A model generated the notes under the pieces. It was given only the letters and a program-made list of their open reading frames with translations. It searched no databases and was not told where the DNA came from. A program made the translations under genes and the position numbers. From a virus, in IMG/VR virus record IMGVR_UViG_3300017971_000228, positions 1 through 64,000 of that record: 64,000 bases of DNA. One strand, written 5' to 3'. This document shows positions 15,530 through 42,819 of this stretch, piece after piece; position 1 is the first letter of the stretch; each line of letters begins with the position of its first letter.

Positions 15530-15993
15530 ATGCGGGTCCGCTGACGGATGATCTGGTCGCTGAGAGGGTGATGGGGTGGCAGCGGAAGTGGGTATTGGCC
15601 AAGAGTCCCGGTGTTTTCTGGGGCGGACTCTATGCCACCAAGCTGGAATGCACCAACTACCAGCGGCGAAGCGGAATTGACAGAGATTATCATTCGACAT
15701 TGGTATGGGCAGAGGGGGATCGGATTGCAGCGTGGAGGGAGGAGTGGAAGCCGTCAACGGACGTGGGCGTGGCCATGCAAGCCGTTGAACACGTCCAGGG
15801 CTTGCCGTGTCTGGGGATAGGATTTGATCTGCATTCACGGGGAGATGTGAAGGTCCATCGGGAGAAGTGGACGGCTGAGATGAGCATGCCGGGGCTATAT
15901 CGACGGCAGGAATGGTGCGGTCATGGAGGTACGGCGGCGCTGGCCATCTGTCGTGCGCTGCTCGAATGGGCAGTATTCTTGACAGAACGCTGA
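15526..15993 (+). CDS. Phage ABA-sandwich (BC1872-like) domain protein
   Basis: DDLVAERVMGW...WKPSTDVGVAMQAVE...TAALAICRALL. Confidence 0.75.
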   Translation: MNAGPLTDDLVAERVMGWQRKWVLAKSPGVFWGGLYATKLECTNYQRRSGIDRDYHSTLVWAEGDRIAAWREEWKPSTDVGVAMQAVEHVQGLPCLGIGFDLHSRGDVKVHREKWTAEMSMPGLYRRQEWCGHGGTAALAICRALLEWAVFLTER

Positions 15994-16007
15994 TTCGGTG
16001 GTACTAT
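15979..16007 (+). promoter_or_regulatory. Sigma70-type promoter upstream of portal
   Basis: TTGACA-17 nt-TACTAT. Confidence 0.7.
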
Positions 16008-16032
16008 ATGATTACAATACAAGAGCCAACTT

Positions 16033-16080
16033 CTGAGATGTAAGGGCGACTCAGCACCATTGAGTCGCCCTTTTTTTGTT
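16033..16080 (+). terminator. Intrinsic terminator with competing antiterminator stem (leader copy 1)
   Basis: AAGGGCGACTCA/TGAGTCGCCCTT stem plus T7; alternative CTGAG/CTCAG pairing. Confidence 0.8.
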
Positions 16081-16096
16081 GCTTGAAGGATAACCG

Positions 16097-17572
16097 ATGC
16101 CAGATGAGACAAAACTGACGAGGGCCACCTTTGGCGAGTTGGGGGCGGCGGGCCTGAACCGCTATGGCGGCACGGTAGACAACGACTTCATCAAGGACCT
16201 GGAGCGAGCGACTTCCCGGTTCAAGATATTCACGGAGATGCGGCTGAACGATCCGGTCATTGGCGCGATTCTGTTCCTGGTGGAGCAGATGCTGCGCCGT
16301 GTCGTTTGGATGGTAGAACCTTCAGACCCGACGGATGACGTGGCCGTAGAACGGGCAGAGTTCATCGAATCCTGCATGGCAGACATGAGCCACACCTGGA
16401 ATGACTTCATCAGCGAAGCCATCACCTTCCTGCCCTACGGGTGGAGCTGGTTTGAACAGGTTTTCAAGAAGCGGCTAGGTCCAAAGCCGAAGAACTACTG
16501 CAAGGATCCCGCCCCATCATTGCACAACGACGGGCTAGTGGGCTGGCGCAAGTTCGCCGTTCGGGCGCAGGAATCCCTAGACCGATGGGACTTCGACGAG
16601 AACGGCGGCATCCAGGGCATGTACCAGCGACCAGCGCCGGACTACGTAGAGCGGTACATCCCTATTGACAAGTCGCTGCTGTTTCGGACGAGAGTAGAAC
16701 TGAACTCGCCGGAGGGGCGGAGTGTCCTGAGACACGCCTACCGCAGTTATCACTTCAAGAAAAATCTTGAGGTCATCATGGGCATCGGCGCGGAACGAGA
16801 TCTGGCGGGTATGCCGGTGATCTACCTGCCGCCGGGGGCCACGAAGGATGACTACGACCAGGCGCGGAAGGTCGTGGAGCGAGTAAGGGTAGACGAATAC
16901 TACGGACTTACCATCCCCGGTCCCAAGGCGACCAACATGGAGGCAGCCAGGGAGGGTGGGTGGTTGTTCGAGCTGGTCGTCAGTGGCGGGCGGCACTCCT
17001 TTGCCCTGGTGGAGATGCTGGAGTACTACGACCGACGCATGTCCATGGCCGTGCTGGCGCAGTTCATCATGCTGGGCAGCGGTTCGGTAGGCAGCTTCGC
17101 ACTTTCACGGGACCATTCGGAGATCTTCCTAAAGGCGCTGGAGGGGTGGGCGACGATGATAGCGGAGACCATCAACCGTCACGCCATCCCCAAGCTGATG
17201 CGCATGAACGGCTGGGATGAAGCACAGTCCCCGCAGCTGAAGCCTTCGGGTCTACTGAGAGCTGACATCGGCGAATTGAGTAACCTGATCATGGCCTTTG
17301 GCCAGGCGGGGTTGGATCTGCGTGACATCGAGGACCATATCCGGTCGCAGGCGAACCTGCCGCCCAGGACGGAAGAGGCGAAGCTGGTAGAGCCGATCAA
17401 GCCCATGAACCAGCGGAAGCCTGAAGTACCTGAAGAAGAAGAAGTAGAGAAGGCGGAACCCTGGCATCTGGTGGGGCGGATTCCGACGAGGGATGAGATT
17501 CTGGCGGGCTACCGGATCACGCCAGCGGATAGGGAACTGGTCGCAGCGGAGTTCGAGAAGGTGCTGGGGTGA
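16097..17572 (+). CDS. Phage portal protein (DUF935-like)
   Basis: 491 aa; EMRLNDPVIG, PYGWSWFE, SPEGRSVLRHAY, AERDLAGMP, GSFALS, INRHAIP. Confidence 0.9.
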   Translation: MPDETKLTRATFGELGAAGLNRYGGTVDNDFIKDLERATSRFKIFTEMRLNDPVIGAILFLVEQMLRRVVWMVEPSDPTDDVAVERAEFIESCMADMSHTWNDFISEAITFLPYGWSWFEQVFKKRLGPKPKNYCKDPAPSLHNDGLVGWRKFAVRAQESLDRWDFDENGGIQGMYQRPAPDYVERYIPIDKSLLFRTRVELNSPEGRSVLRHAYRSYHFKKNLEVIMGIGAERDLAGMPVIYLPPGATKDDYDQARKVVERVRVDEYYGLTIPGPKATNMEAAREGGWLFELVVSGGRHSFALVEMLEYYDRRMSMAVLAQFIMLGSGSVGSFALSRDHSEIFLKALEGWATMIAETINRHAIPKLMRMNGWDEAQSPQLKPSGLLRADIGELSNLIMAFGQAGLDLRDIEDHIRSQANLPPRTEEAKLVEPIKPMNQRKPEVPEEEEVEKAEPWHLVGRIPTRDEILAGYRITPADRELVAAEFEKVLG

Positions 17573-18168
17573 CGATTATCATTCGAAAGCAGCACCCAGC
17601 CCTTCTGGACGCTGAGACACGACGGGTACTGGCAGAGGCAAGACGAGACGCCTTTGACCGTCGGGTAGCGGCGCTGATGGCGTTGCTGAGGGATGGGGAG
17701 ATCGAACTGGTAGAGTGGGTAGAGGAGATGAAGGCGGAGATCAAGAGCCTTCACGTCTCTTCAGCCGTGATTGGCAGGGGCGGGCTGGAAGAGATGACAC
17801 CCGAGGACTGGGAAGCGGTAGAAGCTGAACTGCTGGAGCAGTACGACTACCTGCGGGGGATGGTGGATGAGCTAGTAGCCAATGACGGGCAGGACTTGGG
17901 GCCGCGTTGGGACTGGCGGGCCATTCTGTACGGAGGTGCTGCCTGGGGGACGTTCAACCAATCCGAACTGGCGTGGATGGAAGCGGAAGGGATGACGGAG
18001 TACCAATGGACTCTGGGCTACGCAGATCATTGTGCTAGTTGTGTAGACTATGCGAGCTACGGGTGGGTTCCGCTAGGAATGTTCCCCGGAGTGCCTGCAG
18101 ATGGGACAAGTACCTTATGTGGAACTAATTGCCATTGTCACCTGGAGTATAGAGAGGGGACGGAGTGA
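17569..18168 (+). CDS. Minor head protein (MuF-like)
   Basis: After portal; HCASC...CGTNCHCHL. Confidence 0.7.
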   Translation: MTIIIRKQHPALLDAETRRVLAEARRDAFDRRVAALMALLRDGEIELVEWVEEMKAEIKSLHVSSAVIGRGGLEEMTPEDWEAVEAELLEQYDYLRGMVDELVANDGQDLGPRWDWRAILYGGAAWGTFNQSELAWMEAEGMTEYQWTLGYADHCASCVDYASYGWVPLGMFPGVPADGTSTLCGTNCHCHLEYREGTE

Positions 18169-18980
18169 TGCTGAGTCTCAAGGAGCAACACGAACGGATG
18201 TTGTACCCGGAAGTGCGAGTGCGATCCGGCAAAGCGATGGGGTCGGGAACGATTCTGTACTCAGCCCCTCTGCCCGAAAGTGACGATGGCCGTCACGAGA
18301 CCTACATTCTGACCAATGAACACGTAGTGGACGATCTCATCAAGGTCGAGACCAAGTGGTCGGCGCTGCTGAAGCGGGAGCGCAAGGTAGATGTGCTGGG
18401 GACGCCTTCCATCGAGGTATTCACCTATGACTTCATGAGCCGCGTCATCGGTGGCACGATGTACCAAACGGACATCGTGTGTTACGACAAGGACGAGGAC
18501 TTGGCGTTGCTGCGGGTTCGGGCGCCTAACCAGTTCCCGCACGTCGCTGAGATGTATCCCAGGGCTGAAGTGGACGAGCTGAAGTCCTTCATGCCGGTGG
18601 TAACGGTTGGCTGTGGATTGGGTGCGAAGCCGGTCATCACCTTTGGCTACATCTCTGGGTTTGGGTACGAGATAGAGAACCGCGATTTTGTCCTCATGAG
18701 TGCAGCGAGTATCTTCGGAAACTCCGGTGGGGCTACCTTCCTGCTGGATACGGGGCAGTTCATCGGCGTTCCTTCGCGGCTGGCGGTGAACTGGGGCGAT
18801 GCGATTACGCATTGCAGCTATTCAATACCTGTGTGGAGGGTATACCAGTTCCTAGAGGATCAGGTATTCCACTTCGTCTTTGACGATTCCGTGACTAGCG
18901 CAGAGTGTGAGGAAATGCGTCGGGCGAAGCGGGAGAACGAAGAGTACCAGATGTTGGCAGAGGATCGGGGCAAGAACTAG
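18165..18980 (+). CDS. Trypsin-like serine protease (S1)
   Basis: Catalytic triad motifs TNEHVV, DLALL, GNSGG. Confidence 0.88.
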   Translation: MMLSLKEQHERMLYPEVRVRSGKAMGSGTILYSAPLPESDDGRHETYILTNEHVVDDLIKVETKWSALLKRERKVDVLGTPSIEVFTYDFMSRVIGGTMYQTDIVCYDKDEDLALLRVRAPNQFPHVAEMYPRAEVDELKSFMPVVTVGCGLGAKPVITFGYISGFGYEIENRDFVLMSAASIFGNSGGATFLLDTGQFIGVPSRLAVNWGDAITHCSYSIPVWRVYQFLEDQVFHFVFDDSVTSAECEEMRRAKRENEEYQMLAEDRGKN

Positions 18981-19106
18981 GGGTCACCTGCTGGGCCAGC
19001 ATGTCTAGTACATTCAGAGACAACACAGAACTTTGGGCGCGAGGTCTGCGCGGGTTCTAAACGGTGACGAGCGGAGGCATGGCTGGCCCAGCTTGACAAG
19101 GAATCA

Positions 19107-19391
19107 TTGATGGGATTATTGGCGCAACTGAACAAGGCCACCGAAGACTACCACCGTCGCCTAGTAGACCAACTCCGCCCCTTCGTGAGCCGTCATACTT
19201 TCGAGCACGCTCATCGCAGGGCACGGGGGTATGCTGGTGGACGGGCGAGTCCGAAGCAGCCTACAGGACTAGTAGATGCGTTGAACTCAGGCGTCTTGCG
19301 GCAAGCGTCAGACAAGGATCTGCTGAAGCTGTATGAGATGGTGCAGCAGTTGTCAGTAGTAGAGGAACAAGAAGATGACCTTACTGACTAG
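19107..19391 (+). CDS. Hypothetical protein
   Basis: Packed ORF; LLAQLNKA motif shared with 19375-20289. Confidence 0.55.
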   Translation: MMGLLAQLNKATEDYHRRLVDQLRPFVSRHTFEHAHRRARGYAGGRASPKQPTGLVDALNSGVLRQASDKDLLKLYEMVQQLSVVEEQEDDLTD

Positions 19392-20289: not shown

Positions 20290-20468
20290 ACGCAGAACCC
20301 GCCCGACGCTGGGAGCTGGCACCGCAGGTGACACGTTCCATCTTCACCGATCAGGTAATGGGCATCTGGCTGCGACCTGGGGAGTATGTTCGCTGGAAGC
20401 TACTGAAGATGCCGGACGGGACCAGGGAGGTGATTGGGTACAAGATCATCTCCCGACTCAACGCCTAG
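20286..20468 (+). CDS. Hypothetical protein
   Basis: Packed ORF. Confidence 0.5.
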   Translation: MNAEPARRWELAPQVTRSIFTDQVMGIWLRPGEYVRWKLLKMPDGTREVIGYKIISRLNA

Positions 20469-25289: not shown

Positions 25290-25318
25290 TTGACATCCTG
25301 AAAGGAATCTGCTATTAT
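25290..25318 (+). promoter_or_regulatory. Sigma70-type promoter upstream of the scaffold/capsid block
   Basis: TTGACA-17 nt-TATTAT. Confidence 0.7.
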
Positions 25319-25325: not shown

Positions 25326-25350
25326 TACATCGTGCATTATGCACGATGTA
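25326..25350. promoter_or_regulatory. Perfect 12-bp inverted repeat (operator or 5' hairpin)
   Basis: TACATCGTGCAT-T-ATGCACGATGTA. Confidence 0.6.
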
Positions 25351-25369
25351 TCAACGGAATAGCCGTGTG

Positions 25370-25419
25370 CTGAGAAGTTCGGGCGACTCAGATCCAACGA
25401 GTCGCCCTTTTTTTGTTGC
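25370..25419 (+). terminator. Intrinsic terminator with competing antiterminator stem (leader copy 2)
   Basis: GGGCGACTC/GAGTCGCCC plus T7-GTTGC; alternative CTGAG/CTCAG pairing. Confidence 0.8.
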
Positions 25420-25430: not shown

Positions 25431-26183
25431 ATGCCTGAAAAGGTGACGGAACTATTCGACGTTGAGGTGGAAACGGTGGGCCTTGTGAAACGCGGGGCCA
25501 ACAAGAGACCATGGTTTCTGATGAAATCAGAGGAGGGCAATACTATGGCAGAGGAAAAGGACGTGCTCGAAGTTCTCACCGAAATCGAGCAGGTCGAAGA
25601 GGGCGATCTGGAGATCAAGCACGTCCGCGGGCTTGCCAGCATCGTCAAGGGGCTGTTTGGTTTGACGACCAAGGAGCCAGAGCCTGAGCCAGAACCCGAG
25701 CCTGAGCCAGAACCGGAACCAGAGTTGGATGTGAGTGCCAGGTTGGATGCGCTAGAGAAGGCACACCAGACGGCGCTGGAGAAGGCGATGGTTGAGGTGG
25801 AGAAGGCACAGGCGGAGGCGGCGGAGGCCAAGGCGCAGGCGGCTGAGATGGCTGAGGCGAAGCGCAAGGTAGAGCTGGAGCCCATTGCCAAGAGTGCGGG
25901 GATGGACGTGGACATCTTCTATCGCCTGGAGAAGATGGACAAGGAGATCTTTGACGCAGTGACGGAGCGGTTCCGGGCACTGGACGCCCAGGTGACTGAA
26001 GCGGGCCTCTTCGAAGAGAAGGGCAGCACCCAGGCGGGTGAGCAGGATCCCAGCCAGCTGATTCTCAATCGGGCGGCTGAGCTCCAGAAGTCAGGCATGT
26101 CCGCTGATGAAGCCATTGCGGCTGCGGCCAGGGAAACGGGTGGGTATGGTGAAGCCCGCAACCAGGCCATGGAGGGTAAGTAA
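25431..26183 (+). CDS. Capsid scaffolding-like protein
   Basis: EVETVGLVKRGAN N-terminus, (PE)n linker, acidic coiled coil; upstream of the capsid genes. Confidence 0.7.
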   Translation: MPEKVTELFDVEVETVGLVKRGANKRPWFLMKSEEGNTMAEEKDVLEVLTEIEQVEEGDLEIKHVRGLASIVKGLFGLTTKEPEPEPEPEPEPEPEPELDVSARLDALEKAHQTALEKAMVEVEKAQAEAAEAKAQAAEMAEAKRKVELEPIAKSAGMDVDIFYRLEKMDKEIFDAVTERFRALDAQVTEAGLFEEKGSTQAGEQDPSQLILNRAAELQKSGMSADEAIAAAARETGGYGEARNQAMEGK

Positions 26184-26185: not shown

Positions 26186-26605
26186 ATGCCCATTGGAGCC
26201 TTCGATCATATTACCGATTACTTCCCCGGAGTGAACGCATCTCCGGACATGACTGCTAAGCAGTACTACTCGGTGTACCTGGCCAGTGCGACGCAGGTGA
26301 CACTCCCGGACGGATCGGCGTCTGAGTGCCCCATCGGCATCCTTCAGAACGAGCCGGGGTCGGGCATGACGGCCCAGGTGGCCTACCGACCCGGTGACAT
26401 CTGCAAAGCCTTTGCGAGCGTTTCTACATGCCAGATCACCTACTGGAACCCACTCTACGCTGACTCCAGCGGGTATGTCATTCGGCAGGCGACGGCTGGT
26501 TGTCCCGCCTTCGCACGGGCGTTGGTGTCCACTACGGCATCAGGCGTGATCCCGGTCATGCTGTGCAACCCCTGGCGGGTAACTACACCCAGCCTCAACA
26601 GCTAA
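26186..26605 (+). CDS. Capsid cement/decoration protein, copy 1
   Basis: DMTAKQY...PIGILQNEP...LYADSSG; position before MCP. Confidence 0.7.
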   Translation: MPIGAFDHITDYFPGVNASPDMTAKQYYSVYLASATQVTLPDGSASECPIGILQNEPGSGMTAQVAYRPGDICKAFASVSTCQITYWNPLYADSSGYVIRQATAGCPAFARALVSTTASGVIPVMLCNPWRVTTPSLNS

Positions 26606-26619: not shown

Positions 26620-27039
26620 ATGCCAATCGGGGCGTTTGACCACATAACTGACTACTACCCAGGCGTAAGTGCATCCATCGACTTGACGGCGAAGCAGTAC
26701 CATGCGATGTACCTATCCAGTGCAACTACGGTGACCATTGCCAGGGGTTCGGCTTCGGAGGTCCCGGTAGGGATTCTCCAGAACGAGCCGAACACGGGGC
26801 ATACGGCGCAGGTAGTGTACCGAGAGGGGGACATCTGCAAGGCGTTCGCCAGCGTGACTACTTGCGACATTTCCTACTGGGATGCGCTCTACTCCGATTC
26901 CAGTGGGTACGTCATCAAGCAGGCAACGTCAGGATGTCCGGCCTTCTGCCGGGCCTTGGTAGCGACTACGGCTTCGGGCGTGATTCCCGTCATGGTGTGC
27001 AACCCATGGCGGATCACCACGGCCAGCCACAAGACGTAA
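26620..27039 (+). CDS. Capsid cement/decoration protein, copy 2
   Basis: Same length (139 aa) and highly similar to 26186-26605. Confidence 0.7.
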   Translation: MPIGAFDHITDYYPGVSASIDLTAKQYHAMYLSSATTVTIARGSASEVPVGILQNEPNTGHTAQVVYREGDICKAFASVTTCDISYWDALYSDSSGYVIKQATSGCPAFCRALVATTASGVIPVMVCNPWRITTASHKT

Positions 27040-27344: not shown

Positions 27345-28307
27345 ATGCCCTCACCAACTCTCAAAGATTTGCATGTTAACAGCGTGCTAACGGAGATGTC
27401 CATCGCCTATCGGAACGATGCGTACATCGCAGACCGGGTTTTTCCCTTGGTCAATGTTGACAAACAGTCTGATATCTATGCTCTGTACACCAAGCAAGAC
27501 TGGTTCCGAGACGAGGCGCAGCGGCGTGCTCCGGGTGAAGAGGTGAAGACTAGTGGGTGGAACGTTGACACAACGAACACCTACTACTGCATCAACTACG
27601 CTCTGGGCAAGGACATCCCTGACGAAATCGCCGCCGGCGCAGATGACGTGTTCGACCTGGACCGGGACGCCACCATCTTCGTGACGGACAAGCTGCAGCT
27701 CAGGCGTGAGATCGAGTGGGCGGCAGACTTCTTCACCACGGGCGTGTGGGGAACGGATGCCACCTTCAGTGCCACCACACGGTGGAATGTGTACGCCAGC
27801 TCGGATCCACTGAGCGACGTGCATGACGGCATCGAGACCGTTCTACAGAATACGGGCAAGCGGCCCAACAAGTTCGTCATGGGCTACCAGGTGTTCAATG
27901 AGTTGCTGGACCACCCGGACATCCTGGATCGGATCAAGTACGGGGCGAGTTCCGGCAATCCGGCAGTGACCACGGAGATGGCACTGGCGCAGCTCTTCGG
28001 CGTGGATGAAGTGCTGGTAGCACGGGCCATCAAGACCACGAATATCGAGAAGAACGAATCGCCTACCATGAGCTTCGTGTGGGGGCAGCATGCGCTGCTT
28101 CTGTACGTGGCGCCACGGCCCAGCAGGCTGGAACCCAGTGCGGGCTACACCTTCGTGTGGAACCCGATGGGCGGACGCGGCCCTCAGATTATCAATCAGA
28201 GGCGTGATTCGGCCCGACACTGCGACGTGGTGGAAGCCATTGGGTACTGGGATTCGAAGCGTACCGCACAGGATTGTGGATATTTCTTCTCATCGGTCAC
28301 GGCGTGA
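27345..28307 (+). CDS. Major capsid protein
   Basis: LTEMSIAYRN..IADRVFP, RRAPG, KRPNKFVMG..LLDHPDI, PSAGYTF; AGGAGG RBS. Confidence 0.88.
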   Translation: MPSPTLKDLHVNSVLTEMSIAYRNDAYIADRVFPLVNVDKQSDIYALYTKQDWFRDEAQRRAPGEEVKTSGWNVDTTNTYYCINYALGKDIPDEIAAGADDVFDLDRDATIFVTDKLQLRREIEWAADFFTTGVWGTDATFSATTRWNVYASSDPLSDVHDGIETVLQNTGKRPNKFVMGYQVFNELLDHPDILDRIKYGASSGNPAVTTEMALAQLFGVDEVLVARAIKTTNIEKNESPTMSFVWGQHALLLYVAPRPSRLEPSAGYTFVWNPMGGRGPQIINQRRDSARHCDVVEAIGYWDSKRTAQDCGYFFSSVTA

Positions 28308-30229: not shown

Positions 30230-30841
30230 ATGCTGGAATACAACCGGATATATCAGGGTGACTTTCAGGATCTTCTCGTAGGGCTGGGTTCGGGCTGGGC
30301 AGACCTCATCTGCACCGGACCCAGCGCCTACGGGCAGGGACAGGAGCATCTGGACCGACTGACGCGGTGGGCACGACGGTTCAGGGAAGCACTCAGGCCA
30401 AAGGGAGTACTGTTTTCGATCTGGCCTGAGCTACGGGTATGGACCTTTGCCCAAGCAGCCCTGGATGCTCGGTACGTTACCATCCAGGTACAGCACAATA
30501 TCTGCCAGGGGCAGCCTCTGGCGTTGGCAGGACAGTGTACCGTCATCGCCACGCCGCAGACGCCTGAAGCTCTGCCGATGTATGATGGGGAACTGGCGAG
30601 CATCACTGCACCCCCCTGGACGTCGGGCTTCCCGGTAGAGCTAGCAGAACGGGCGATAGAGACCTATTGCCCCCCGGAAGGGGTAGTCTTCGATCCGTTC
30701 ATGGGGCTGGCCACCACGGCCATCGCTGCGATACGACTGGGGCGTCGGTGGGTGGGCTGCGAACTGGACGAGAAGCGGATCAAGTCAGCCTACGAACGCA
30801 TCACGCAGGAGACGGGATGGGAGCCAGATGCGGTTCAGTGA
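30230..30841 (+). CDS. N6/N4 DNA methyltransferase-like protein, atypical catalytic motif
   Basis: IYQGD, DLICTGPSAY (in place of DPPY), FPVEL, VFDPFMGLATT, WVGCEL. Confidence 0.75.
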   Translation: MLEYNRIYQGDFQDLLVGLGSGWADLICTGPSAYGQGQEHLDRLTRWARRFREALRPKGVLFSIWPELRVWTFAQAALDARYVTIQVQHNICQGQPLALAGQCTVIATPQTPEALPMYDGELASITAPPWTSGFPVELAERAIETYCPPEGVVFDPFMGLATTAIAAIRLGRRWVGCELDEKRIKSAYERITQETGWEPDAVQ

Positions 30842-31415
30842 GGCCCTGGAAGGACAGATCCATGCGGTAGACTGCGTAGACTTCATGCGGTCACTGGAGC
30901 CGCACTGGGCGGACGCCATCATCACCGGACCCAGCGCCAACGAACAGGGCAAGTGGGTCAAGCGTGAGCGTCGCTGGATGGTGAACTTCGCCAGGGCGCT
31001 GAGGTTCGGCGGGGTTCTGGCCCTGTTGGGCCGTCCGGGGTGGTGTAGCCGGCAGGAACGGGCGGTTCGCCGGGTAGGCTTCAACGTGCTGGGCATCTGC
31101 GGCACACCGGAATCTAGCTTCTCGGGCAAGGAAGTGCTGGTGGCGGTACTGGGAAGCCAGGTAGAAGTCAGGCAACCACCCAATCCCTGGAAGATGGTCT
31201 GTTCCAGGGTGCAGTGGGGGTCCAGTGTCCCTGTAGAGCAAGTAGTAGCGATAGTGGAAGAGTACACGAAGCCGGGGGAGCTAGTGTTCGATCCCTTCAT
31301 GGGGTTGGGAACGACGGCCATGGCCTGCGAGCGCACGGGCAGACGATGGGTAGGATGTGAGATCGAGGCTGGGCGTGCGCAGGATGCGACTAGGCGTATC
31401 GAAGCGATACGATAG
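30828..31415 (+). CDS. N6/N4 DNA methyltransferase-like protein, paralogue
   Basis: DCVDFM, DAIITGPSAN, LVFDPFMGLGTT, WVGCEI. Confidence 0.75.
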   Translation: MRFSEALEGQIHAVDCVDFMRSLEPHWADAIITGPSANEQGKWVKRERRWMVNFARALRFGGVLALLGRPGWCSRQERAVRRVGFNVLGICGTPESSFSGKEVLVAVLGSQVEVRQPPNPWKMVCSRVQWGSSVPVEQVVAIVEEYTKPGELVFDPFMGLGTTAMACERTGRRWVGCEIEAGRAQDATRRIEAIR

Positions 31416-33326: not shown

Positions 33327-36300
33327 ATGCCCTTTCTGAAGCAAGCTACTGCGGCCTGCCTGATGATGGGGCCGTTCGTGTCGGAGGATGACGGTTATTC
33401 AGCCTGCAATGACATTTCCATTGACGCCTCCATGGTACTCTTATCAAAGGCAGGCGCAGCTATAGCTGCCATGAACTCATCCACTAGCCCAGAACACTCA
33501 GGGAGTGGGTACTTCCAGGTTACGCTGGACACGACGGATACCGGAACGCTGGGAACCCTGAAGGTCGCAGTTAGCGTTAGTCCGACTCTTCCGGTCTGGG
33601 AGACCTATGATGTGCTGAGTTCCTGCGTCTGGGATGCCTGGTTCTCCGACGGCGCCAAGATGACGGTGGATGTGGACGGCGGGGTAGTCAGTGCATCAGA
33701 TCTGGTCAGCGCTTCAGACATCACCAGTGCGGTGATTCCAGCATCCAACATAGATGCCCAGATGAGTACGCTGGCGACGGCAGCAGGTGTTATCAGTGCT
33801 TCGGATGTCCTGGCAGCTTCCGATGTTCAGGCCAGTGCCTGCGCTGCCCTTTCAGCCTACAAGTTGGATCACTTGGTCTTTGAGGCAGATGCCGACGATC
33901 CTGCCGATAACTCCATCATCGCCAAGTTGGCTGCTTCGGGTGGAGACTGGAGTACTTTCACGGCTAGTCTAAACTCCCTTGAGGCGATGACGGATAATCA
34001 ATCAGACATTGTCACAGACACAGCTGAGATAGGTGCCGCAGGGGCCGGGCTTACGGCCGTACCATGGAATAGCGACTGGGATACCGAAGTCGAATCAGAA
34101 GTCGATGATGCCCTGGGGGGTGGTACTGGAACTGCTTTGACGGCCGTACCCTGGAACAGCGATTGGGACGCAGAGGTCCAGTCCGAAGTCAATGATGCCT
34201 TGGTAGCGTTGAAGCTGGATCACCTCATCGCTACATCAGAGGCCGATGACCCAGTAAACAACTCGATCATAGCGAAGCTGGCAGCTTCCGGGGGCGACTG
34301 GAGTACCTTTACCGCCAGTCTAAACTCACTGGAAGCCATTACGGACGACGTGGGCGATGTCAACGCTGCTACCGGAATCAGCGCCAGTGACGTGCTGAGT
34401 TCCAGCGATCTGGACAAAGCCCTGACAGACATCAACCTGGATCACCTGCTGAAGACGGCGACGGCCGGTTCAGATATGACCACCGAAGTCGCTGACAATA
34501 CCGTCATGGCCCGAATCCTGGCCAATGGTGACACTTCGGCCTTCGATCAGGGAACTGACGGACTACAGCTGATTCGAGACAAGCTAACGGACATTGAGAC
34601 TGATACCGGGGAAATTGGCGCTGCAGGGGCGGGCCTGACCCAGCTCGGGGGCATGGCAACCTCCATGATGGCAGAAGTGCAGTCTGAAGCGAATGATGCG
34701 CTAGTCGCCTTGAAGTTGGATCATCTAGTTGCAGCCGCTGAGAGTGACGATCCGGTAGACAATTCAATCATCGCCAAACTGGCAGCGAGTGGTGGTGATT
34801 GGAGCACGTTCACAGCAAGCCTGAATGCTCTGGAAGCGTTGGCAGATAATCAATCAGACATCGTAACGGATACGGCGGAGATAGGTGCGGCAGGTGCTGG
34901 GCTCACAGCCGTGCCCTGGAACAGTGATTGGGACACGGAAGTTGAGTCAGAAGTCGATGACGCACTGGGCGGTGGAACCGGGACAGCCTTGACGGCGATT
35001 CCCTGGAACTCTGACTGGGATACTGAGGTACAGTCCGAAGTGAACGACGCACTGGTAGCCTTGAAGCTAGATCACCTCATCGCCACCTCGGAAGCTGATG
35101 ACCCGGCGGACAATTCCATCATCGCCAAGCTCGCAGCCAGTGGGGGTGACTGGAGTACCTTTACCGCTAGCCTGAATTCACTGGAAGCTATCACGGATGA
35201 CGTGGGCGACATCAGTGCCGCCCAGAGTATCGCTGCATCTGATGTGCTAAGCTCTAGTGACTTGGACAAGGCACTGACCGACATCAATCTGGATCACCTA
35301 CTCAAGACAGCCACCGCTGGGTCAGATATGACGACTGAGGTGGCAGACAATACGATCATGGCCCGAATCCTGGCGAATGGCGATACATCAGCCTTCGATC
35401 AGGGGACTGACGGACTGCAACTGATCCGAGACAAGCTAACGGATATCGAGACGGACACCGGGGAGATTGGAGCCGCCGGGGCAGGTCTGACACAACTGGG
35501 CGGCATGGCAACCTCGATGATGGCAGAAGTGCAAAAAGAGGTTGACGACGCGCTAGTAGCTCAGAAGCTAGATCATCTAGTAAACGTAGCCGACAGCGAT
35601 GATGCGGCCGACAATTCACTGATAGCGAAGCTGGCGGCCAGTACGGGCGACTGGAGTGACTTCACGGGAAGCCTCAACTCGCTGGTGGTCATCACGAACA
35701 ACCAGGCCAACATTGAGACTGATACCGCAGAAATAGGCGCGGCTGGTGCCGGACTCACGCAACTGGGCGGATTATCAACCTGCATGATGGCTGAAGTTCA
35801 AAGCGAAGTCAACGACGCCCTGGTGGCAGTGAAGCTGGACCACCTCGTCTTCGCAGCGGAAACAGATGATGCGGCCGACAACTCTATCATCGCCAAGCTC
35901 GCTGCGTCAACAGGCGATTGGAGCGACTATACAGCCAGCTTGAATTCGATGGTCATCCAGACCACGAATCAGGCCAATATCGAAGCGGATACTCAGGATC
36001 TACAGTCACAGATCGGAACTGCGGGGGCCGGTCTCACGCAGTTGGGTGGTATGGCTACTTCTATGATGGCGGAAGTCCAGTCAGAAGTCAACGATGCTCT
36101 TGTGGCTCTGAATCTGGACCACCTGCTGGCCACAGCAACGGCTGGCTCGGACATGACGACAGAGGTAGTGGACAATACCATCCTGAGTAGGGTACTGGCC
36201 AATGGAGATACTTCAGCCTTTGACCCGACTACGGACGGGTTGCAGCTCATCAGAGACAAGCTATCAGACATTGAAACGGATACTGGAGAGATAGGTACGG

Positions 36301-37574
36301 CCGGGGCGGGGTTGACCCAACTCGGCGGAATGTCCACATCCATGATGGCTGAAGTGCAAAGTGAAGCCAATGATGCTTTGGTTGCCCAGAAGTTGGATCA
36401 CCTAGTCGCTGTAGCTGATGGCGATGATCCGGTCAATGATTCTATCATCGCCAAGATCACTGCCAGCACCGGTGACTGGAGTGACTTCAGCGCAAGCACC
36501 CAGTCCCTGGTTGTGCTGGCGACCAACCAGGCAAACATCGAGACCGATACGGCCGAAATAGGTACGGCGGGGGCTGGCCTTACCCAACTGGGCGGACTCT
36601 CCACCTGCGCTATGGCTGAAGTCCAGAAGGAAGTTGATGACGGTCTGGTTGCACAGAAACTGGACCACCTGGTTAACGTAGCTGACTCTGATGATCCTGC
36701 CGACAATTCCATCATGGCGAAGCTGGCTGCGTCGGGTGGGGACTGGAGTACCTTCAGCCCCAGTTCTGACGCCCTGGAAGCTCTGGCGGACAACCAGTCC
36801 GATATCGTGACGGACACAGCAGAGATAGGCGCAGCCGGGGCAGGGCTGTCAGCGATTCCCTGGAACTCTGACTGGGACACGGAGGTGGAGTCAGAAGTTG
36901 ACGATGCGTTGGGCGGGGGTACGGGAACATCACTCACAGCTGTCCCGTGGAATAGCGACTGGGACACGGAAGTCCAGAGCGAGGTCAACGACGCGCTGGT
37001 TGCGCTCAAGCTAGATCACCTGGTAGCAGCATCGGAATCTGACGATCCCGTTGACAACTCCATCCTAGCCAAGCTGGCTGCCAGCGGAGGGGATTGGAGC
37101 GCCTTCAGTCCCTCAAGCGATGCTCTGGAAGCGGTGACTGACAATATCAACCAGGTCAGCACTGCGACCGGACTCAGTGCTTCAGATGTACTGAGTGCCA
37201 GTGATCTGATAGCGGCGTCGGACATCGCCGACGCAGTCTGGGATGAAACCAGCGCGGGGCATACCGATGCCGGCAAGGCCGGGCTACAGATGTGGACCGA
37301 CGTCGATGCCATCCTATCAGATACGGGAACGGACGGGGTGGTCCTATCTACGGCGACGCAGCAGTCCATTGCCGATGAAACGCTGAAGCGGGATGTGTCC
37401 AACGTAGAGAGCAGTGCTTGTGATCACTCGCTGACGACTATCGTTCTGGCCACACTGGAATCCAGTACGGCGGCCTCGGTCTGGACCATCAAGCAGACGG
37501 ATGGGTCCACAACCTACCAGACGAAGACACTGACGCTTGACGGCTCGGCGAGCGCGATCACTGGGGTGTCCTAG
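33327..37574 (+). CDS. 1415-aa modular repeat fibre/appendage protein
   Basis: Recurrent LDHL...DNSIIAKLAASGGDWS, DTAEIGAAGAGLT, PWNSDWDTEV and ANGDTSAFD modules. Confidence 0.8.
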   Translation: MPFLKQATAACLMMGPFVSEDDGYSACNDISIDASMVLLSKAGAAIAAMNSSTSPEHSGSGYFQVTLDTTDTGTLGTLKVAVSVSPTLPVWETYDVLSSCVWDAWFSDGAKMTVDVDGGVVSASDLVSASDITSAVIPASNIDAQMSTLATAAGVISASDVLAASDVQASACAALSAYKLDHLVFEADADDPADNSIIAKLAASGGDWSTFTASLNSLEAMTDNQSDIVTDTAEIGAAGAGLTAVPWNSDWDTEVESEVDDALGGGTGTALTAVPWNSDWDAEVQSEVNDALVALKLDHLIATSEADDPVNNSIIAKLAASGGDWSTFTASLNSLEAITDDVGDVNAATGISASDVLSSSDLDKALTDINLDHLLKTATAGSDMTTEVADNTVMARILANGDTSAFDQGTDGLQLIRDKLTDIETDTGEIGAAGAGLTQLGGMATSMMAEVQSEANDALVALKLDHLVAAAESDDPVDNSIIAKLAASGGDWSTFTASLNALEALADNQSDIVTDTAEIGAAGAGLTAVPWNSDWDTEVESEVDDALGGGTGTALTAIPWNSDWDTEVQSEVNDALVALKLDHLIATSEADDPADNSIIAKLAASGGDWSTFTASLNSLEAITDDVGDISAAQSIAASDVLSSSDLDKALTDINLDHLLKTATAGSDMTTEVADNTIMARILANGDTSAFDQGTDGLQLIRDKLTDIETDTGEIGAAGAGLTQLGGMATSMMAEVQKEVDDALVAQKLDHLVNVADSDDAADNSLIAKLAASTGDWSDFTGSLNSLVVITNNQANIETDTAEIGAAGAGLTQLGGLSTCMMAEVQSEVNDALVAVKLDHLVFAAETDDAADNSIIAKLAASTGDWSDYTASLNSMVIQTTNQANIEADTQDLQSQIGTAGAGLTQLGGMATSMMAEVQSEVNDALVALNLDHLLATATAGSDMTTEVVDNTILSRVLANGDTSAFDPTTDGLQLIRDKLSDIETDTGEIGTAGAGLTQLGGMSTSMMAEVQSEANDALVAQKLDHLVAVADGDDPVNDSIIAKITASTGDWSDFSASTQSLVVLATNQANIETDTAEIGTAGAGLTQLGGLSTCAMAEVQKEVDDGLVAQKLDHLVNVADSDDPADNSIMAKLAASGGDWSTFSPSSDALEALADNQSDIVTDTAEIGAAGAGLSAIPWNSDWDTEVESEVDDALGGGTGTSLTAVPWNSDWDTEVQSEVNDALVALKLDHLVAASESDDPVDNSILAKLAASGGDWSAFSPSSDALEAVTDNINQVSTATGLSASDVLSASDLIAASDIADAVWDETSAGHTDAGKAGLQMWTDVDAILSDTGTDGVVLSTATQQSIADETLKRDVSNVESSACDHSLTTIVLATLESSTAASVWTIKQTDGSTTYQTKTLTLDGSASAITGVS

Positions 37575-38132: not shown

Positions 38133-38145
38133 GGGGATTATCATT

Positions 38146-38676
38146 ATGGCTTACGGTAGCGCATCGGGGGTCGCAGCCCTCTGCAAGCACCTCACTAACG
38201 AAGGCGACGGGGCCTTCAACAACGACACGACACCTACTCGTCGGCAGGTGCTGGCCTTCCTGGACGACGGCTCTGCGCTGATGGACGCGGAGATCGCCCA
38301 GCATGGGTTTACTACACCCGTCTCTGCCAGTCTGGTGGTAGCGGTACTGGACCCCATCGCGGAGTACTACGCCGCGGCCATGGCGGAGAGCATCGAAACG
38401 GTCTCCCGTTCTGACTGGCAGGGGACCAGCGAGAGCTCGAAGCCGACGCACTGGATGGACATGCACCGCGACTCCATGGACCGGATCCTGTCGGAACGGG
38501 GACGGGCGCTGGCTATTCTGGGAGCGGGGAGGGGCGTGGACCTGTCGGAGTACCTGCATGCCGGCGGGCTGAGTGAGGATGAGAAGGACACCTGGGAAAG
38601 TGACAGCGACTTCATTCAGCCACGGTTCAAGGTGGGGATGATGGAATACAAGACGGTAGACTGGAGAACGGTGTAG
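38146..38676 (+). CDS. Head-tail adaptor/connector
   Basis: MAYGSASGV...TTPT...V; position. Confidence 0.6.
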   Translation: MAYGSASGVAALCKHLTNEGDGAFNNDTTPTRRQVLAFLDDGSALMDAEIAQHGFTTPVSASLVVAVLDPIAEYYAAAMAESIETVSRSDWQGTSESSKPTHWMDMHRDSMDRILSERGRALAILGAGRGVDLSEYLHAGGLSEDEKDTWESDSDFIQPRFKVGMMEYKTVDWRTV

Positions 38677-39179
38677 TGCCGGTCCTTCTGAAGATCTCCA
38701 CCCAGGGTTTTGAGGCGACGGCGGGGCGGTTCGCACGGGCGCAGAGCTTCCTGCCGCATAGCTTCCAGCAACGGCTGGGAGAGCTGATGCGCAGCATCCG
38801 GGACGTGGTGCGGGCCGAAGCACCGCCCAATCTGAGCCGATACGTGACGCACCGAACGGAGATGCTATCCCATAGTCCGGCAAGGGCGCTGGGGAAGATC
38901 GACCTGGAGCAACCGCCGAACCCACCCTATCCAGCGGAAATCTGGGACTACATCATCAAGGGGACGAAGCCCCACCCGATTGTACCACGTCGGGCGCGGG
39001 CGCTGGCCTTCTACTGGGAGAAGGTAGGGGCGGACGTAGTACTGCCCCACGTAAATCATCCCGGTACGGACCCCAACGACTTCCCGGCGAGGGCGTGGCG
39101 CAGGATCGGGAGGGGGCATCTAGAGCGGACGGCGGCGAAGATCGGGCTGGACGTGGTGGGAGTGCTGGGGGGACAATGA
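38676..39179 (+). CDS. Neck protein (HK97 gp10-like)
   Basis: GTKPHPIVP...AL.F.....VNHPGT.PNDF. Confidence 0.7.
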   Translation: MPVLLKISTQGFEATAGRFARAQSFLPHSFQQRLGELMRSIRDVVRAEAPPNLSRYVTHRTEMLSHSPARALGKIDLEQPPNPPYPAEIWDYIIKGTKPHPIVPRRARALAFYWEKVGADVVLPHVNHPGTDPNDFPARAWRRIGRGHLERTAAKIGLDVVGVLGGQ

Positions 39180-39598
39180 GCTGGACGGGGGTACGAAGCG
39201 GGGCCTGTAGCCTGCTGATTGCGACCAGCATCTACGAAGCTGACAATAATACAGGCTGGATTGACCCAGGCGTACTGGACACGACGACATGTCGCTGGGC
39301 GGCCATCTTCGCACCGGGGCCTATTGAGATCCCGCGTACGACCTTCGGCAGCCATCACGTCACTTGGTCGCTCATCCTGCAGACCTGGATTATCAATGAC
39401 GGCAACTTCGACAACTGGCAGGACGACCACGATACGGTGATCCAGGACACGGTGGATGCGCTGCGGTCGGATGATACGCTGGGGGGGAGCTGTGACAACG
39501 CCGTCATCAGCCTGGTAGACATCAGCGTAGAGGAACGGGGAAACCGGCGGTACGACGTGTTGAGCTGGCTAATAGAAGCAGAAGAGTACGGACTGTAG
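39176..39598 (+). CDS. Tail terminator/completion protein
   Basis: ALRSDDTLGG motif; position. Confidence 0.6.
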   Translation: MSWTGVRSGACSLLIATSIYEADNNTGWIDPGVLDTTTCRWAAIFAPGPIEIPRTTFGSHHVTWSLILQTWIINDGNFDNWQDDHDTVIQDTVDALRSDDTLGGSCDNAVISLVDISVEERGNRRYDVLSWLIEAEEYGL

Positions 39599-39622
39599 AT
39601 GGACTGAGTCGAAAGGAAGGAG

Positions 39623-40801
39623 GTGCGGTTGCGATTTCTGTTCGTAGTAGCGGACAGCGCCCGCGAATGGAACTGTTCGGAATGGCGGGTGGCAATCCCG
39701 ATGAGGGCGATTAACAACACAGAGGGTCACAGCGCAGTGGCGATAAACTGGGAGCAATTCGGGCATTTTGAGAGACCGGATGTCCAAGACGTGGTTATGC
39801 CGGCGGATCTGGTGATCTACCAGCGGAATCTCTTTTGTGAACCGTACTTCTCAGCCGTCGAGTACTTCCAGGGGCTGGGCAAGCCGTTCATCCTGGACCT
39901 GGACGACTCCTATCCCATCTTGCCCTGGAGCAACCCAGCCCATGGGTTCTGGATCCAGAACGTCCGGAAGATGGACCCGGAGCCGCTGAAGGGGCTGGAG
40001 ATCGGGGTACAGCTGGTGGACGCGGTGTCGAGTCCCAGCAAGATGATCTGCCAGGACTGGGCGCATCTGAACACGCCGATCTGGCTACCCAACTTCGCAG
40101 AAGGTGGATGGTACAAGGACTTGCCGGGCAAGGCGGAAGAACTGAAGGACCGGATTGTCATTGGCTGGGGGGGCAGCATCAGCCACTATGATGGGTTCTG
40201 GCTCTCAGGGGTGCGGCAGGCGCTGGAGAACATCTGCCAACGAAGACCGGAGGTACTGTTCAAGTTCTGCGGGAACGACGGGCGAATCTATCTCCAGCTT
40301 CCGGTAGGTACATCGCAGAAGATGTGGCAGCAGGGGGTGCCGCCCAGCCAGTGGCCCAAGGTCATCTCTACCTTCGACATCGGGCTGGCGCCGCTAGACC
40401 TTATCGGGGGGTATGAATCACGCAAGAGCTGGCTGAAGGGGCTGGAGTACATGCTGGCAAAGGTGCCCTGGATAGGTAGCGATGGGCCATCCTACAGCGA
40501 CCTGCGGCATCATGGGCTGATGGTAGGCAACAGCCCGGCAGAGTGGGAAGAGGCACTGGAATACATGATAGACCATCTCGAAGAGGAGAAGGAGAAGGCG
40601 GCGGGTGAACCCTATGAATGGGCGCAGACGCTGACGATGGAGAACAACGTAGGGTTCTACGTTCAACTGGCACAGAAGATGGCGGGGCTAAGGTCGGCGG
40701 CAATGGGGCTGCCGGGGTTAATGCACGTAGGGGCGAAGCGACCGATAAGCGTGAAGGACGTGACACCACTGGAGGATCTGATCTATGTCAAAGCTGCTTG
40801 A
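39623..40801 (+). CDS. Glycosyltransferase (GT-B, GT4-like)
   Basis: WRVAIP, YQRN, DLDD, LPN, IGWGGSISH, DIGLAPL, KSWLKGLEY. Confidence 0.85.
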   Translation: MRLRFLFVVADSAREWNCSEWRVAIPMRAINNTEGHSAVAINWEQFGHFERPDVQDVVMPADLVIYQRNLFCEPYFSAVEYFQGLGKPFILDLDDSYPILPWSNPAHGFWIQNVRKMDPEPLKGLEIGVQLVDAVSSPSKMICQDWAHLNTPIWLPNFAEGGWYKDLPGKAEELKDRIVIGWGGSISHYDGFWLSGVRQALENICQRRPEVLFKFCGNDGRIYLQLPVGTSQKMWQQGVPPSQWPKVISTFDIGLAPLDLIGGYESRKSWLKGLEYMLAKVPWIGSDGPSYSDLRHHGLMVGNSPAEWEEALEYMIDHLEEEKEKAAGEPYEWAQTLTMENNVGFYVQLAQKMAGLRSAAMGLPGLMHVGAKRPISVKDVTPLEDLIYVKAA

Positions 40802-40994
40802 CGTTGAGGGGTTGCTGGACGAACGGGAGCCGCTGCAGCGCGGGGTATACCAGTTCGTGACGACTTGGTATGAACGACTGAAGCTAGAATACGAAGGAGT
40901 GAATCTGGGAGAATGCCTACAATACAACCTGAGCCAACTGTGCAACCATCGGGTGCTGGCGGAGATGGAGAAGGCACGGGCCAAACCGCTGTGA
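40785..40994 (+). CDS. Hypothetical protein (possible N-terminal partner of the next gene)
   Basis: LEYEGVNLGECL; overlaps both neighbours. Confidence 0.5.
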   Translation: MSKLLDVEGLLDEREPLQRGVYQFVTTWYERLKLEYEGVNLGECLQYNLSQLCNHRVLAEMEKARAKPL

Positions 40995-42265
40995 AGCCGG
41001 TCATCGTCCTGAGTGGGGGGCCCGCGGTCGTTCCCCTGGTAGCGAAGTTCGACGGGGACGGGAAGGTGACGGACCCGCTACTGTCGGGGGAGTACGATCT
41101 GGCATTCCTGTACCCGCAGGTAGCAGACCAGTTCAGGGGACGGGGACTGGAGTGCTTCAAGATTGACGACGGGACGACGGGGCAGGACAACAACGACGCT
41201 ATCAACTGGGCAGTTCAGAAGGCGATGCCGCTTCTGGCGTCACTGAAGGGTAGAAAGCAAAGCCGAATACGGGAGTGCTTCCCGCAGGACCAGCGGATTC
41301 TCAAAGTGGTGAGCGGGGGGTTGCTGGACTGGATGCCGGGGTACGTGGTCTCGTCGATGGCGCGGATGCACATGCGCATCACGGTCTGGAAGCGGTTCTG
41401 GGATTCGCATGACGTCCGGCTGGTGGTGACGCACGAGGACGTGGCAGAGGACACGAAGGCCCTGGTGCAGTTTGCCAGGGCGCAGGGAACGCCGACGCTG
41501 CACGTGCCGCACTTCAACCATGGCAGTCTGCCGAGGCCCATGCCGGACCTACATGACTCTATCAACTGTGACTACGCAGCGGTAGCAGGGACCTACATGC
41601 GGGGGTGGCTGGCGGAGAGGGGCATGGACCCGGACCATATCCGCATCACGGGGCATCCTGCCTGGGACCGATACGCGCACATCAACCCGGACCGCTACTG
41701 GGCGCGGGCGATGATGCGGCTGAATCCGGCAAGGAAAGCGGTCTGCTATGCAGCGGACTGGGTGCTCTGGACGACGCTATGCTACCACGAGCATACCCCG
41801 CAGGCAGGGTGGCGGGCGATGCTGGGAGCAGCCAAGGCGCTGACTCAGGAGGGGTGGATACTCATCTGCAAGGCACACCCGGGGGCCAAGGAGACCAACG
41901 CGGCATGGCACGCTAAGACAGCGGAGGACACAGGCGTGGAATGCGTGGTCACTGACAGGCATCTGGATGTGGTGCTACAGGCTGCGGATGTGTTTGTGAG
42001 CAACGGATTCTCAAACATCATCGCTGAAGCGGCCATGGCGGGGGTGCCGGGCATCACGCTGGGGCCGGGGTATCTGGATGAACCGGCGGTGCCGGGGGTA
42101 GAGTACGATGCGGAGGCGCTGTACCTGAAGATCAAGGAGGTCCAGGCGACCAGGGAGGCATGGCAGGAGAAGTTGCTGCCGGCTTTCATGACTCGCTTCG
42201 TCGGGCCGAATGACGGGCAGGCAGCGGATCGCATCGTGGAGTGGTGTCGGGAGTTGGCAGGATAA
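40991..42265 (+). CDS. GT-B fold protein (capsule-synthesis / CDP-glycerol transferase / epimerase-like); candidate CMP-nonulosonate transferase
   Basis: HVPH, ITGHPAWD, CKAHPG, SNIIAEA...GVP, DGQAADRI. Confidence 0.65.
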   Translation: MKPVIVLSGGPAVVPLVAKFDGDGKVTDPLLSGEYDLAFLYPQVADQFRGRGLECFKIDDGTTGQDNNDAINWAVQKAMPLLASLKGRKQSRIRECFPQDQRILKVVSGGLLDWMPGYVVSSMARMHMRITVWKRFWDSHDVRLVVTHEDVAEDTKALVQFARAQGTPTLHVPHFNHGSLPRPMPDLHDSINCDYAAVAGTYMRGWLAERGMDPDHIRITGHPAWDRYAHINPDRYWARAMMRLNPARKAVCYAADWVLWTTLCYHEHTPQAGWRAMLGAAKALTQEGWILICKAHPGAKETNAAWHAKTAEDTGVECVVTDRHLDVVLQAADVFVSNGFSNIIAEAAMAGVPGITLGPGYLDEPAVPGVEYDAEALYLKIKEVQATREAWQEKLLPAFMTRFVGPNDGQAADRIVEWCRELAG

Positions 42266-42273
42266 GCTGACCT

Positions 42274-42351
42274 AACGGAATAGTCTAGCGGACTTATCGG
42301 GCGACCGCGTCTCTCTGTCCTTGGGGGCAGGGGGTGGTCGCCTTTGTTTTT
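42274..42351 (+). terminator. Terminator/antiterminator leader, copy 3
   Basis: AACGGAATAG...GCGG-ACTTATC-GGGCGA-CCGC; GGGCGACC/GGTCGCCT stem followed by TTGTTTTT. Confidence 0.7.
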
Positions 42352-42363
42352 GAGGAGGATCCA

Positions 42364-42819
42364 ATGCCGCACGTACACGGCAAGAACGTCGATGTGAAGA
42401 TACTGGACGTGGACGCTGTAGAGCAGAACATCACGTCGGACGGCAACAGCGTCACGCTCACCTGGACAAATGATATCGCTGAACTTAGGGCCTTTGGTGC
42501 GGCGGCACTGGAGAAGCTGGAAGGTGTCCCGGACTGGGGCTGGGAGTTCGCCGGATACTACCATACCACGGCATCGCAGATAGACGAGATTCTGGGCAAC
42601 ATCGCTACCTGCGTGTCCAGTTCTACAGCCGCCTGCATTGCCTTCGGGGGTGCGGGGGCGACGGAAGTGGGGTGTCCCTTCTGGTATGGCAACTGTATTC
42701 TGGCAGAGTATGCAGTCGAAGCACCGTCTGACGGGCCGGTGACGGTAACAGCCACTTTCGCGGGCAGTGGTGCTCTATCGCGGGCAGCCATCGCCGCTGG
42801 CGGGTCCTGGACTCCATAA
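42364..42819 (+). CDS. Tail tube protein, copy 1
   Basis: HVHGKN...ELRAFG...LEG..DW..EFAG...YAVEAPSDGPVTVTATFAGSG. Confidence 0.8.
   Translation: MPHVHGKNVDVKILDVDAVEQNITSDGNSVTLTWTNDIAELRAFGAAALEKLEGVPDWGWEFAGYYHTTASQIDEILGNIATCVSSSTAACIAFGGAGATEVGCPFWYGNCILAEYAVEAPSDGPVTVTATFAGSGALSRAAIAAGGSWTP

Follow-up and report, generated by a model that had tools for sequence, protein, structure and literature searches.

Terminator-containing leaders ahead of the portal, capsid and tail genes of an uncultivated phage: candidate sites of factor-dependent read-through

Why should a phage place a strong intrinsic terminator just before its portal, capsid and tail genes, in two cases shortly behind a near-consensus promoter? 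The question is raised by three leader units in a 64-kb window consisting of bases 1-64000 of the 98,106-bp IMG/VR record IMGVR_UViG_3300017971_000228, the genome of an uncultivated phage. To our knowledge, the switch to virion gene expression is little understood outside the cases of lambdoid Q, Mu C, T4 and a few Gram-positive activators, and in uncultivated phages hardly at all. A sequence-only reading of the window had described the units as three copies of a terminator/antiterminator leader and proposed a late-gene attenuator switched by a phage RNA-binding antiterminator. Based on the anatomy of the units, their conservation in relatives and a search for the factor, our best reading is that of factor-dependent read-through of terminator-gated late leaders, which would form a new RNA family.

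Anatomy and conservation of the leader units

Every element listed in the sequence-only reading for its three copies, hereafter units 1-3, was seen on reading the sequence; the coordinates of their parts were counted by hand (Table 1). Each unit lies at the 3' end of an accessory block of sugar/tailoring (glycan) genes, and structural genes resume behind it, as had been claimed, with the portal gene following unit 1, the scaffold-like/capsid block unit 2 and the tail genes unit 3; each of the three stops 12-15 nt short of the start codon. Units 1 and 2 are a 62-nt direct repeat with 81% identity and are located 10-45 nt past TG-extended sigma-70 promoters (10/12 and 11/12 matches) that rank among the best in the window, in agreement with the promoters proposed for them. 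Unit 3 lies 17 kb downstream of unit 2, and no plus-strand promoter was identified within 2 kb upstream of it. The box reported to be common to units 2 and 3 proved to be a 10-nt sequence that occurs exactly twice in the window, at equal offset upstream of the terminator. Between these two units, identical blocks (10/10 and 7/7) are separated by diverged segments, a pattern of selection and not of recent copying. A signature of GGGCGAC plus a T run was found at only the three sites in the whole genome. In a genome-wide scan for hairpins followed by T runs, units 2 and 1 ranked as the two strongest canonical terminators, and no other strong terminators were found in the late region.

Table 1. 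Coordinates (window numbering) of the leader units and of the genes behind them
Feature	Unit	Position	Strand	Remarks
Promoter	1	15979..16007	+	-35 at 15979-15984, 17-nt spacer, -10 at 16002-16007; TG-extended; 10/12
Box	1	16021..16027	+	Diverged copy of the conserved 5' box (consensus AAUAGYC)
Candidate antiterminator hairpin P1	1	16033..16054	+	5-bp stem, 12-nt loop; 5' arm 16033-16037, loop 16038-16049, 3' arm 16050-16054; -3.2 kcal/mol
Intrinsic terminator	1	16044..16077	+	10-13 bp stem; arms 16044-16053 / 16061-16070; T7 run 16071-16077
Portal gene (Mu gp29-like, DUF935)	1	16097..17572	+	Start 19 nt past T run of unit 1
Promoter	2	25290..25318	+	11/12 match; TG-extended
Perfect 11-bp palindrome (or 5' hairpin)	2	25326..25350	+	3-nt centre; between promoter and box of this unit only
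Box	2	25353..25364	+	First 10 nt same as box of unit 3
Candidate antiterminator hairpin P1	2	25370..25391	+	Arms 25370-25374 / 25387-25391
Intrinsic terminator	2	25381..25414	+	9-bp stem, 9-nt loop; arms 25381-25389 / 25399-25407; T7 run 25408-25414
Scaffold- or protease-like gene	2	25431..26183	+	Behind unit 2; head of capsid block
Major head gene		27345-28307		Within the capsid block headed by 25431..26183
Box	3	42274..42285	+	Starts 8 nt past stop codon of upstream glycosyltransferase-like gene; no promoter
Candidate antiterminator hairpin P1	3	42288..42308	+	4-bp stem, arms 42288-42291 / 42305-42308; 3 pairs differ on both sides from units 1 and 2
Intrinsic terminator	3	42299..42351	+	Long hairpin, -31 kcal/mol; arms 42299-42308 / 42334-42343; T-rich run 42344-42351
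Major tail protein gene	3	42364..42819	+	Behind unit 3; first of ~12 kb of tail and lysis genes

Searches of viral, metagenome and genome collections, guided by the portal protein, revealed only two close relatives with the module, a 22-kb metagenome contig (L021; portal 67% identical) and a 98,979-bp IMG/VR genome (G001, also labelled L101; portal 56% identical). Both contain two modules, ahead of the portal and the scaffold-like gene, each behind a 12/12 promoter, giving seven instances in all (three in the phage studied and two in each relative). Three further relatives, with 52-55% identity, are known from their portal, and the element was not found in distant relatives with portal identity of 51% or less.

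The seven instances share one order of parts: an optional promoter, a leader of variable length, the box AAUAGYC, a spacer of 2-7 nt, a purine-rich arm, 3-7 nt, GGGCRR, an arm of 4-5 nt able to pair with the purine-rich one, the remainder of the terminator, and lastly a U tract, with 12-17 nt, including a Shine-Dalgarno sequence, between the U tract and the start codon. Among the six units with a promoter, the box follows the -10 element after ~12 nt in three cases, after 28 and 37 nt in two others and after 84 nt in the last; unit 3 has no promoter. Whereas this distance varies, the spacing of the box and GGGCRR relative to the terminator is fixed, which ties the motif to the terminator and the RNA and not to the promoter. 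The palindrome between promoter and box of unit 2 could form a hairpin that stabilises the 5' end, or could be an operator bound by a dimeric protein.

The sequence-only reading had suggested a covariance model and a search of Rfam and phage genomes, and in these searches held-out instances were recovered. A first model, built from three instances, identified the portal unit of L021 (E = 1.5e-6), the scaffold unit of G001 (4.8e-5) and unit 3 (0.6); elsewhere in the studied genome and in 682 kb from distant relatives, nothing reached E <= 1. A second, built from five instances, identified the held-out portal unit of G001 (E = 8e-4); over both full genomes its extra hits were confined to the reverse strand of unit 1 and one weak match, and that match (E = 4.9) lies inside a coding frame of a distant relative. 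Nothing else credible was found with the models in ~0.9 Mb of other phage DNA. When the collections were scanned for the terminator pattern and for a promoter-plus-box pattern, all sites returned were unrelated. Searches against Rfam 15 gave no match in the 64 kb at gathering thresholds, nor, for the 12 kb surrounding four of the units, at E <= 5, so that no known riboswitch or other Rfam family could be assigned.

Two other promoter arrangements were observed. G001 contains a second, stereotyped class of near-consensus promoters before small genes (7267, 8797, 12959 and 17355), which agree in the sequence that follows the -35 element and in an 8-mer behind the -10 element, and which are distinct from the promoters of its gated units. 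Five unrelated IMG/VR contigs (L233, L254, L262, L268 and L296) share, behind a consensus promoter, a conserved leader of ~80 nt with a terminator at its end, which may represent another leader or small-RNA family.

The terminator helix and the candidate hairpin P1

The hairpins of units 1-3 have energies of -18 to -31 kcal/mol, and immediately behind them lies a T7 run in units 1 and 2 and a T-rich run in unit 3, the build of intrinsic terminators. The terminator helix covaries strongly: it is 100% paired in an alignment that was fitted to it, with six of nine pairs changing on both sides, and its covariation score was reached by 0 of 500 shuffles, while slid controls paired at ~50%.

The upstream stem had been proposed to be mutually exclusive with the terminator, and the overlap on which that proposal depends was found throughout. 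The hairpin, here called P1, can be drawn in all seven instances, as CUGAG/CUCAG in two, as wobble variants of this in two more, and as GCGG/CCGC, AGGGA/UCUCU and GGGU/ACCU in the others, and in each instance (in unit 1 exactly) its loop and 3' arm together hold the entire 5' arm of the terminator. The stem itself is very weak. Where the terminator arm has changed, in unit 3 and in both units of G001, the upstream arm has changed in a compensating way, in three lineages. A register-free test, in which each arm was compared with swapped arms and with shuffled upstream sequence, gave p values of 0.008-0.15 per instance, and unit 3 and the portal unit of G001 clearly favoured their own P1 arm over swapped ones; combining four lineages by Fisher's method (our own arithmetic) gave ~1e-3. 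On balance P1 is plausible, with some compensatory changes, but short of established.

Folding of the nascent segment with RNAalifold picked a contact of three pairs between the box and the P1 loop, which is present in 7/7 instances. If the box paired with GGC in the loop, the resulting H-type pseudoknot might act as a small riboswitch that keeps the terminator from forming when it binds a metabolite, such as a nucleotide-sugar synthesised by enzymes of the adjacent accessory block. The ~15 conserved positions in ~35 nt are in the range of the smallest riboswitches, and every unit follows a glycan-pathway block. However, the contact is only 3 bp long and invariant, so that it offers no covariation, nothing in Rfam resembles it even at the relaxed threshold, and there is no pointer to a ligand; we consider a riboswitch very improbable. 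It also seems rather doubtful that phages use these leaders as a novel class of very small RNA switch to time virion production, whether as the target of a new phage RNA-binding antiterminator that works locally at every module boundary or as a metabolite-sensing pseudoknot linking virion gene expression to the output of the phage glycan pathway. Other roles for the 5' region were considered and rejected. The box forms no consistent duplex with the ribosome site or the start codon, and a leader peptide is confined to a tiny frame in unit 2, without a ribosome site, with none in the other units.

Proposed holding and release of the virion genes

We consider each unit to be a terminator-gated leader that would hold the virion genes off until a trans-acting factor permits read-through, and give this reading a probability of roughly 0.4. 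That the virion genes are held off until transcription runs through is probable, since two relatives keep the layout. Host RNA polymerase would start at the near-consensus sigma-70 promoter of units 1 and 2, or arrive from the upstream genes at unit 3, and copy a short leader made up of the box AAUAGYC, the 2-7 nt spacer, the purine-rich arm, and GGGCRR with a further 4-5 nt. It would then meet a strong intrinsic terminator 12-15 nt ahead of the site where ribosomes bind the portal, scaffold/capsid or tail-tube message. Without help the terminator is predicted to form and an RNA of 60-90 nt to be released. On the nascent RNA, the box and the weak P1 may be recognised by a factor produced at an earlier stage of infection, most likely an RNA-binding protein of the phage. 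With the terminator's 5' arm then sequestered in the loop and 3' arm of P1, the terminator would be blocked, each terminator being relieved locally. From this arrangement we infer four things, namely regulated read-through, recognition at the RNA level, local relief and a factor encoded by the phage.

Three features of the units argue for such a scheme. The order of promoter before terminator, found in six of the seven instances and in three phages, makes sense only with regulated read-through, or with the short RNA as a product in its own right. Beyond unit 3 there are ~12 kb of tail and lysis genes with no recognisable promoter of their own, which makes read-through there obligatory. Finally, the motifs travel with the terminator, and unit 3 retains the box and P1 17 kb past unit 2, which favours local relief by an RNA-binding factor.

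The same features bear on the view that there is no dedicated switch. Ordinary terminators might end or insulate the glycan blocks, with the short RNAs a by-product or a small RNA (sRNA) that uses the box as its seed, and the virion genes might be expressed by constitutive leak-through. Each unit does close an accessory block, the promoter-less unit 3 resembles a plain end-of-operon terminator, P1 is without firm statistical support, and the layout, single-stranded at the 5' end and closed by a terminator hairpin with its U tail, is typical of sRNAs; the phage also looks temperate, and insulation of virion genes would be useful in a lysogen. On the other hand, six units in three diverged phages keep the promoter before the terminator, the same strong terminator precedes the low-copy portal and the high-copy scaffold/capsid and tail tube, a poor fit to tuning of amounts, and the entire tail and lysis block would have to pass a terminator of -31 kcal/mol. 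Conserved blocks upstream of the hairpin are superfluous for plain termination, and the phage genomes contain no complement to the box, so that an sRNA seed with a phage target was rejected in all three phages. We regard the absence of a switch as clearly unlikely.

Several results weigh against terminator-gated leaders relieved through P1. The energy of P1 is only -1.3 to -3.6 kcal/mol, compared with -18 to -31 kcal/mol for the terminators, and P1 is often missing from the minimum-energy fold of the nascent RNA; in units 1-3 such folding always chose the terminator over the upstream stem of 4-5 bp. In most instances the energy of P1 was not significant against shuffles. Covariation of the upstream stem, which the sequence-only reading had claimed, holds for the compensating changes described above but not for a column-wise count: P1 paired at 84% in fixed columns, against 16-63% in slid controls, in a terminator-fitted alignment in which three rows were mis-registered, and showed no excess of covariation over shuffles. 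The seven instances come from three genomes only and hence are not independent. G001 contains no unit before its tail gene, and the L021 contig stops before the tail region. The family searches described below found no RNA-binding antiterminator, and the proteins conserved between the two full genomes, those of the studied phage and of G001, are mostly structural or belong to the sugar pathway or to packaging. The proposed late-gene attenuator thus gains from the retention of its modules at the same gene boundaries in two relatives, but no protein of the kind invoked was identified.

The search for this factor covered several families. PF06530, the sole Q family searched, gave no match at E <= 1 in either full genome, although divergent Q folds could escape such a search, and neither genome contains a NusG domain. 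No known antiterminator family occurs among the 25 of 33 matched Pfam families that were listed for 62 early-region proteins; those listed include recombinase, SSB, DnaB, Rad52, ParB, methylases, primase, RNA ligase, a Cro-type HTH and two winged-helix proteins. A CAT/PRD protein was likewise absent from the listed families, and no search aimed at the CAT domain was made. Few proteins are common to the two genomes outside the virion and sugar modules. The winged-helix proteins of the early region were discarded as candidates because they are not conserved in G001. A basic zinc protein (genome positions 82069-82470), the sole one conserved in both genomes, was considered as a Q protein and rejected on its HNH-type motif pattern, which suggests that it is probably a packaging nuclease. 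A sigma factor was set aside as there were only weak helix-turn-helix hits, and recruitment of the ops/RfaH type on account of the missing NusG domain; the box presumably has only a short core in common with the ops element. Two other early-region proteins match a glutaredoxin and the Vut_1 transporter family, which we take to be the YhhQ family of queuosine-precursor transporters.

These negative results also affect the main rival, a processive antitermination of the lambda type, in which RNA polymerase would become resistant to terminators through a Q-like protein loaded at the promoter or at a pause close to it, an N-like protein loaded on an RNA site of box and hairpin, or a put-like leader RNA, and in which the overlap of P1 and terminator would be incidental. 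Late genes that lie behind a strong constitutive promoter, a short RNA and a terminator follow exactly the logic of PR'-tR', and a box followed by a small hairpin recalls the order of boxA and boxB in nut sites. The DNA could contain a loading site, as similar sequence lies just past the -35 element in five of six promoters, and the promoter pairs within the relatives are 24/29 and 27/29 identical. Hexamers resembling a -10 element, which might mark the sigma-dependent pause expected of a Q-type gate, lie ~5 nt past the -10 element of several promoters; in G001, however, such hexamers also follow unrelated promoters. Neither PF06530 nor NusG was matched in the two genomes, but a Q protein too divergent for Pfam is possible, as is the case for BrrG of Bartonella (preprint 10.1101/2024.11.20.624540). 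More difficult to reconcile with a processive complex are unit 3, where the box and P1 occur in the absence of a promoter, and unit 2, in which 25 nt are inserted between promoter and box: the motif follows the terminator, and a complex formed at unit 2 would need no fresh site at unit 3. The element is also far smaller than the put or canT RNAs. Processive antitermination is on the whole unlikely, though of all the alternatives it has to be taken most seriously.

Genome setting and comparison with known systems

The record has direct terminal repeats. The accessory enzymes encoded ahead of the units include cytidylyltransferase-like, B12 radical SAM, sulfatase-fold and glycosyl/glycerophosphotransferase-like proteins. 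The genes for the small and large terminase subunits are located at genome positions 84182-86299, so that ~30 kb, mostly of sugar-nucleotide and tailoring genes across the record ends, separate them from the portal gene; this split of the packaging/head module is unusual and is also seen in the 56% relative. A lysogeny-type module on the minus strand (window 54610-57610) comprises a large serine recombinase, small minus-strand genes and a repressor-like gene of 189 aa, and in the opposite direction a 12/12 promoter at 57528 drives a Cro-type HTH gene (57528-57825). The recombinase and the divergent repressor-type region with its promoter suggest that the phage is temperate.

Tandem paralogues were observed at three places, encoding a head-associated protein of 139 aa (26186-26605 and 26620-27039; copies 75% identical), the major tail protein (42364-42819 and 42841-43266) and a short methyltransferase-like protein (30230-30841 and 30828-31415). 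A protein of 1415 aa (window 33327-37574) is made up of shuffled repeat modules with periods of 87, 267, 279, 351 and 852 nt that have diverged at the DNA level, and a stand-alone RF-1 (GGQ) domain protein is encoded among the accessory genes (window 13499-13885). On the minus strand at genome position ~76302 (L123 ~12300), a 10/12 promoter and a good ribosome site precede a small cysteine-rich frame inside a plus-strand frame of 1043 aa, which may be an overlooked antisense gene.

The late promoters of phage Mu lie at the portal, scaffold/capsid and tail boundaries, and the leader units occupy the same three. The module is compact, repeated and conserved in three phages, and offers a testable RNA target and a bait for its factor. 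Were relief local, the units would represent attenuation in the style of ribonucleic antiterminator (RAT) leaders used as a phage developmental timer; were it processive, they would hint at a new family of loaders. A leader this short would also be a ready-made part for tight off/on control in synthetic circuits.

Among known systems, nut sites combine a boxA consensus with a boxB hairpin that has a GNRA-like pentaloop and is bound by the arginine-rich N protein. In common with the lambda N/nut system, the nascent RNA has a small hairpin with a conserved single-stranded box a short way upstream of it, at a distance of a few nucleotides, and a promoter-less copy such as unit 3 could be a re-loading site. 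Unlike in nut, the box does not resemble boxA, the loop has 9-13 nt, the hairpin overlaps the terminator and no N-like gene was recognised. The put element of HK022 and canT of Tn916 are likewise RNA elements of mobile elements that lie just past a promoter and before terminators, but put has ~70 nt with two stems and canT needs >300 nt (PMC11658703), whereas only ~35 nt precede the terminator here; moreover, a factor-free antiterminator directly before its own terminator would provide no regulation.

In the RAT leaders recognised by BglG, SacY and LicT, as in the present units, a weak hairpin overlaps the 5' arm of a strong terminator and loses to it when unaided, and each terminator has its own copy; P1 has both the instability on its own and the overlap expected of such a hairpin. 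It differs in that a hairpin of 4-5 bp with a loop of 9-13 nt takes the place of the RAT of ~29 nt, an extra single-stranded box is located on its 5' side, and the setting is that of phage late operons. With the lambdoid gate formed by PR', 6S RNA, tR' and Q, the units share a sigma-70 promoter that is followed at once by a terminator, so that a short RNA would be made until read-through into the virion genes; this arrangement was found in units 1 and 2 and in the four units of the relatives, unit 3 being without the promoter. In contrast to the single lambdoid gate, there are two or three gates per genome, placed at module boundaries, one of them promoter-less; the conserved motif tracks the terminator and not the promoter, the 5' arm of the terminator lies inside an alternative hairpin, and no Q homologue was found in the search with PF06530. 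In logic, therefore, the leaders are closest to the lambdoid PR'-tR'/Q gate and its Q21-like relatives, such as that of BrrG, the Q21-like protein of the Bartonella gene transfer agent (10.1101/2024.11.20.624540), and in anatomy they are closest to the RAT-terminator leaders.

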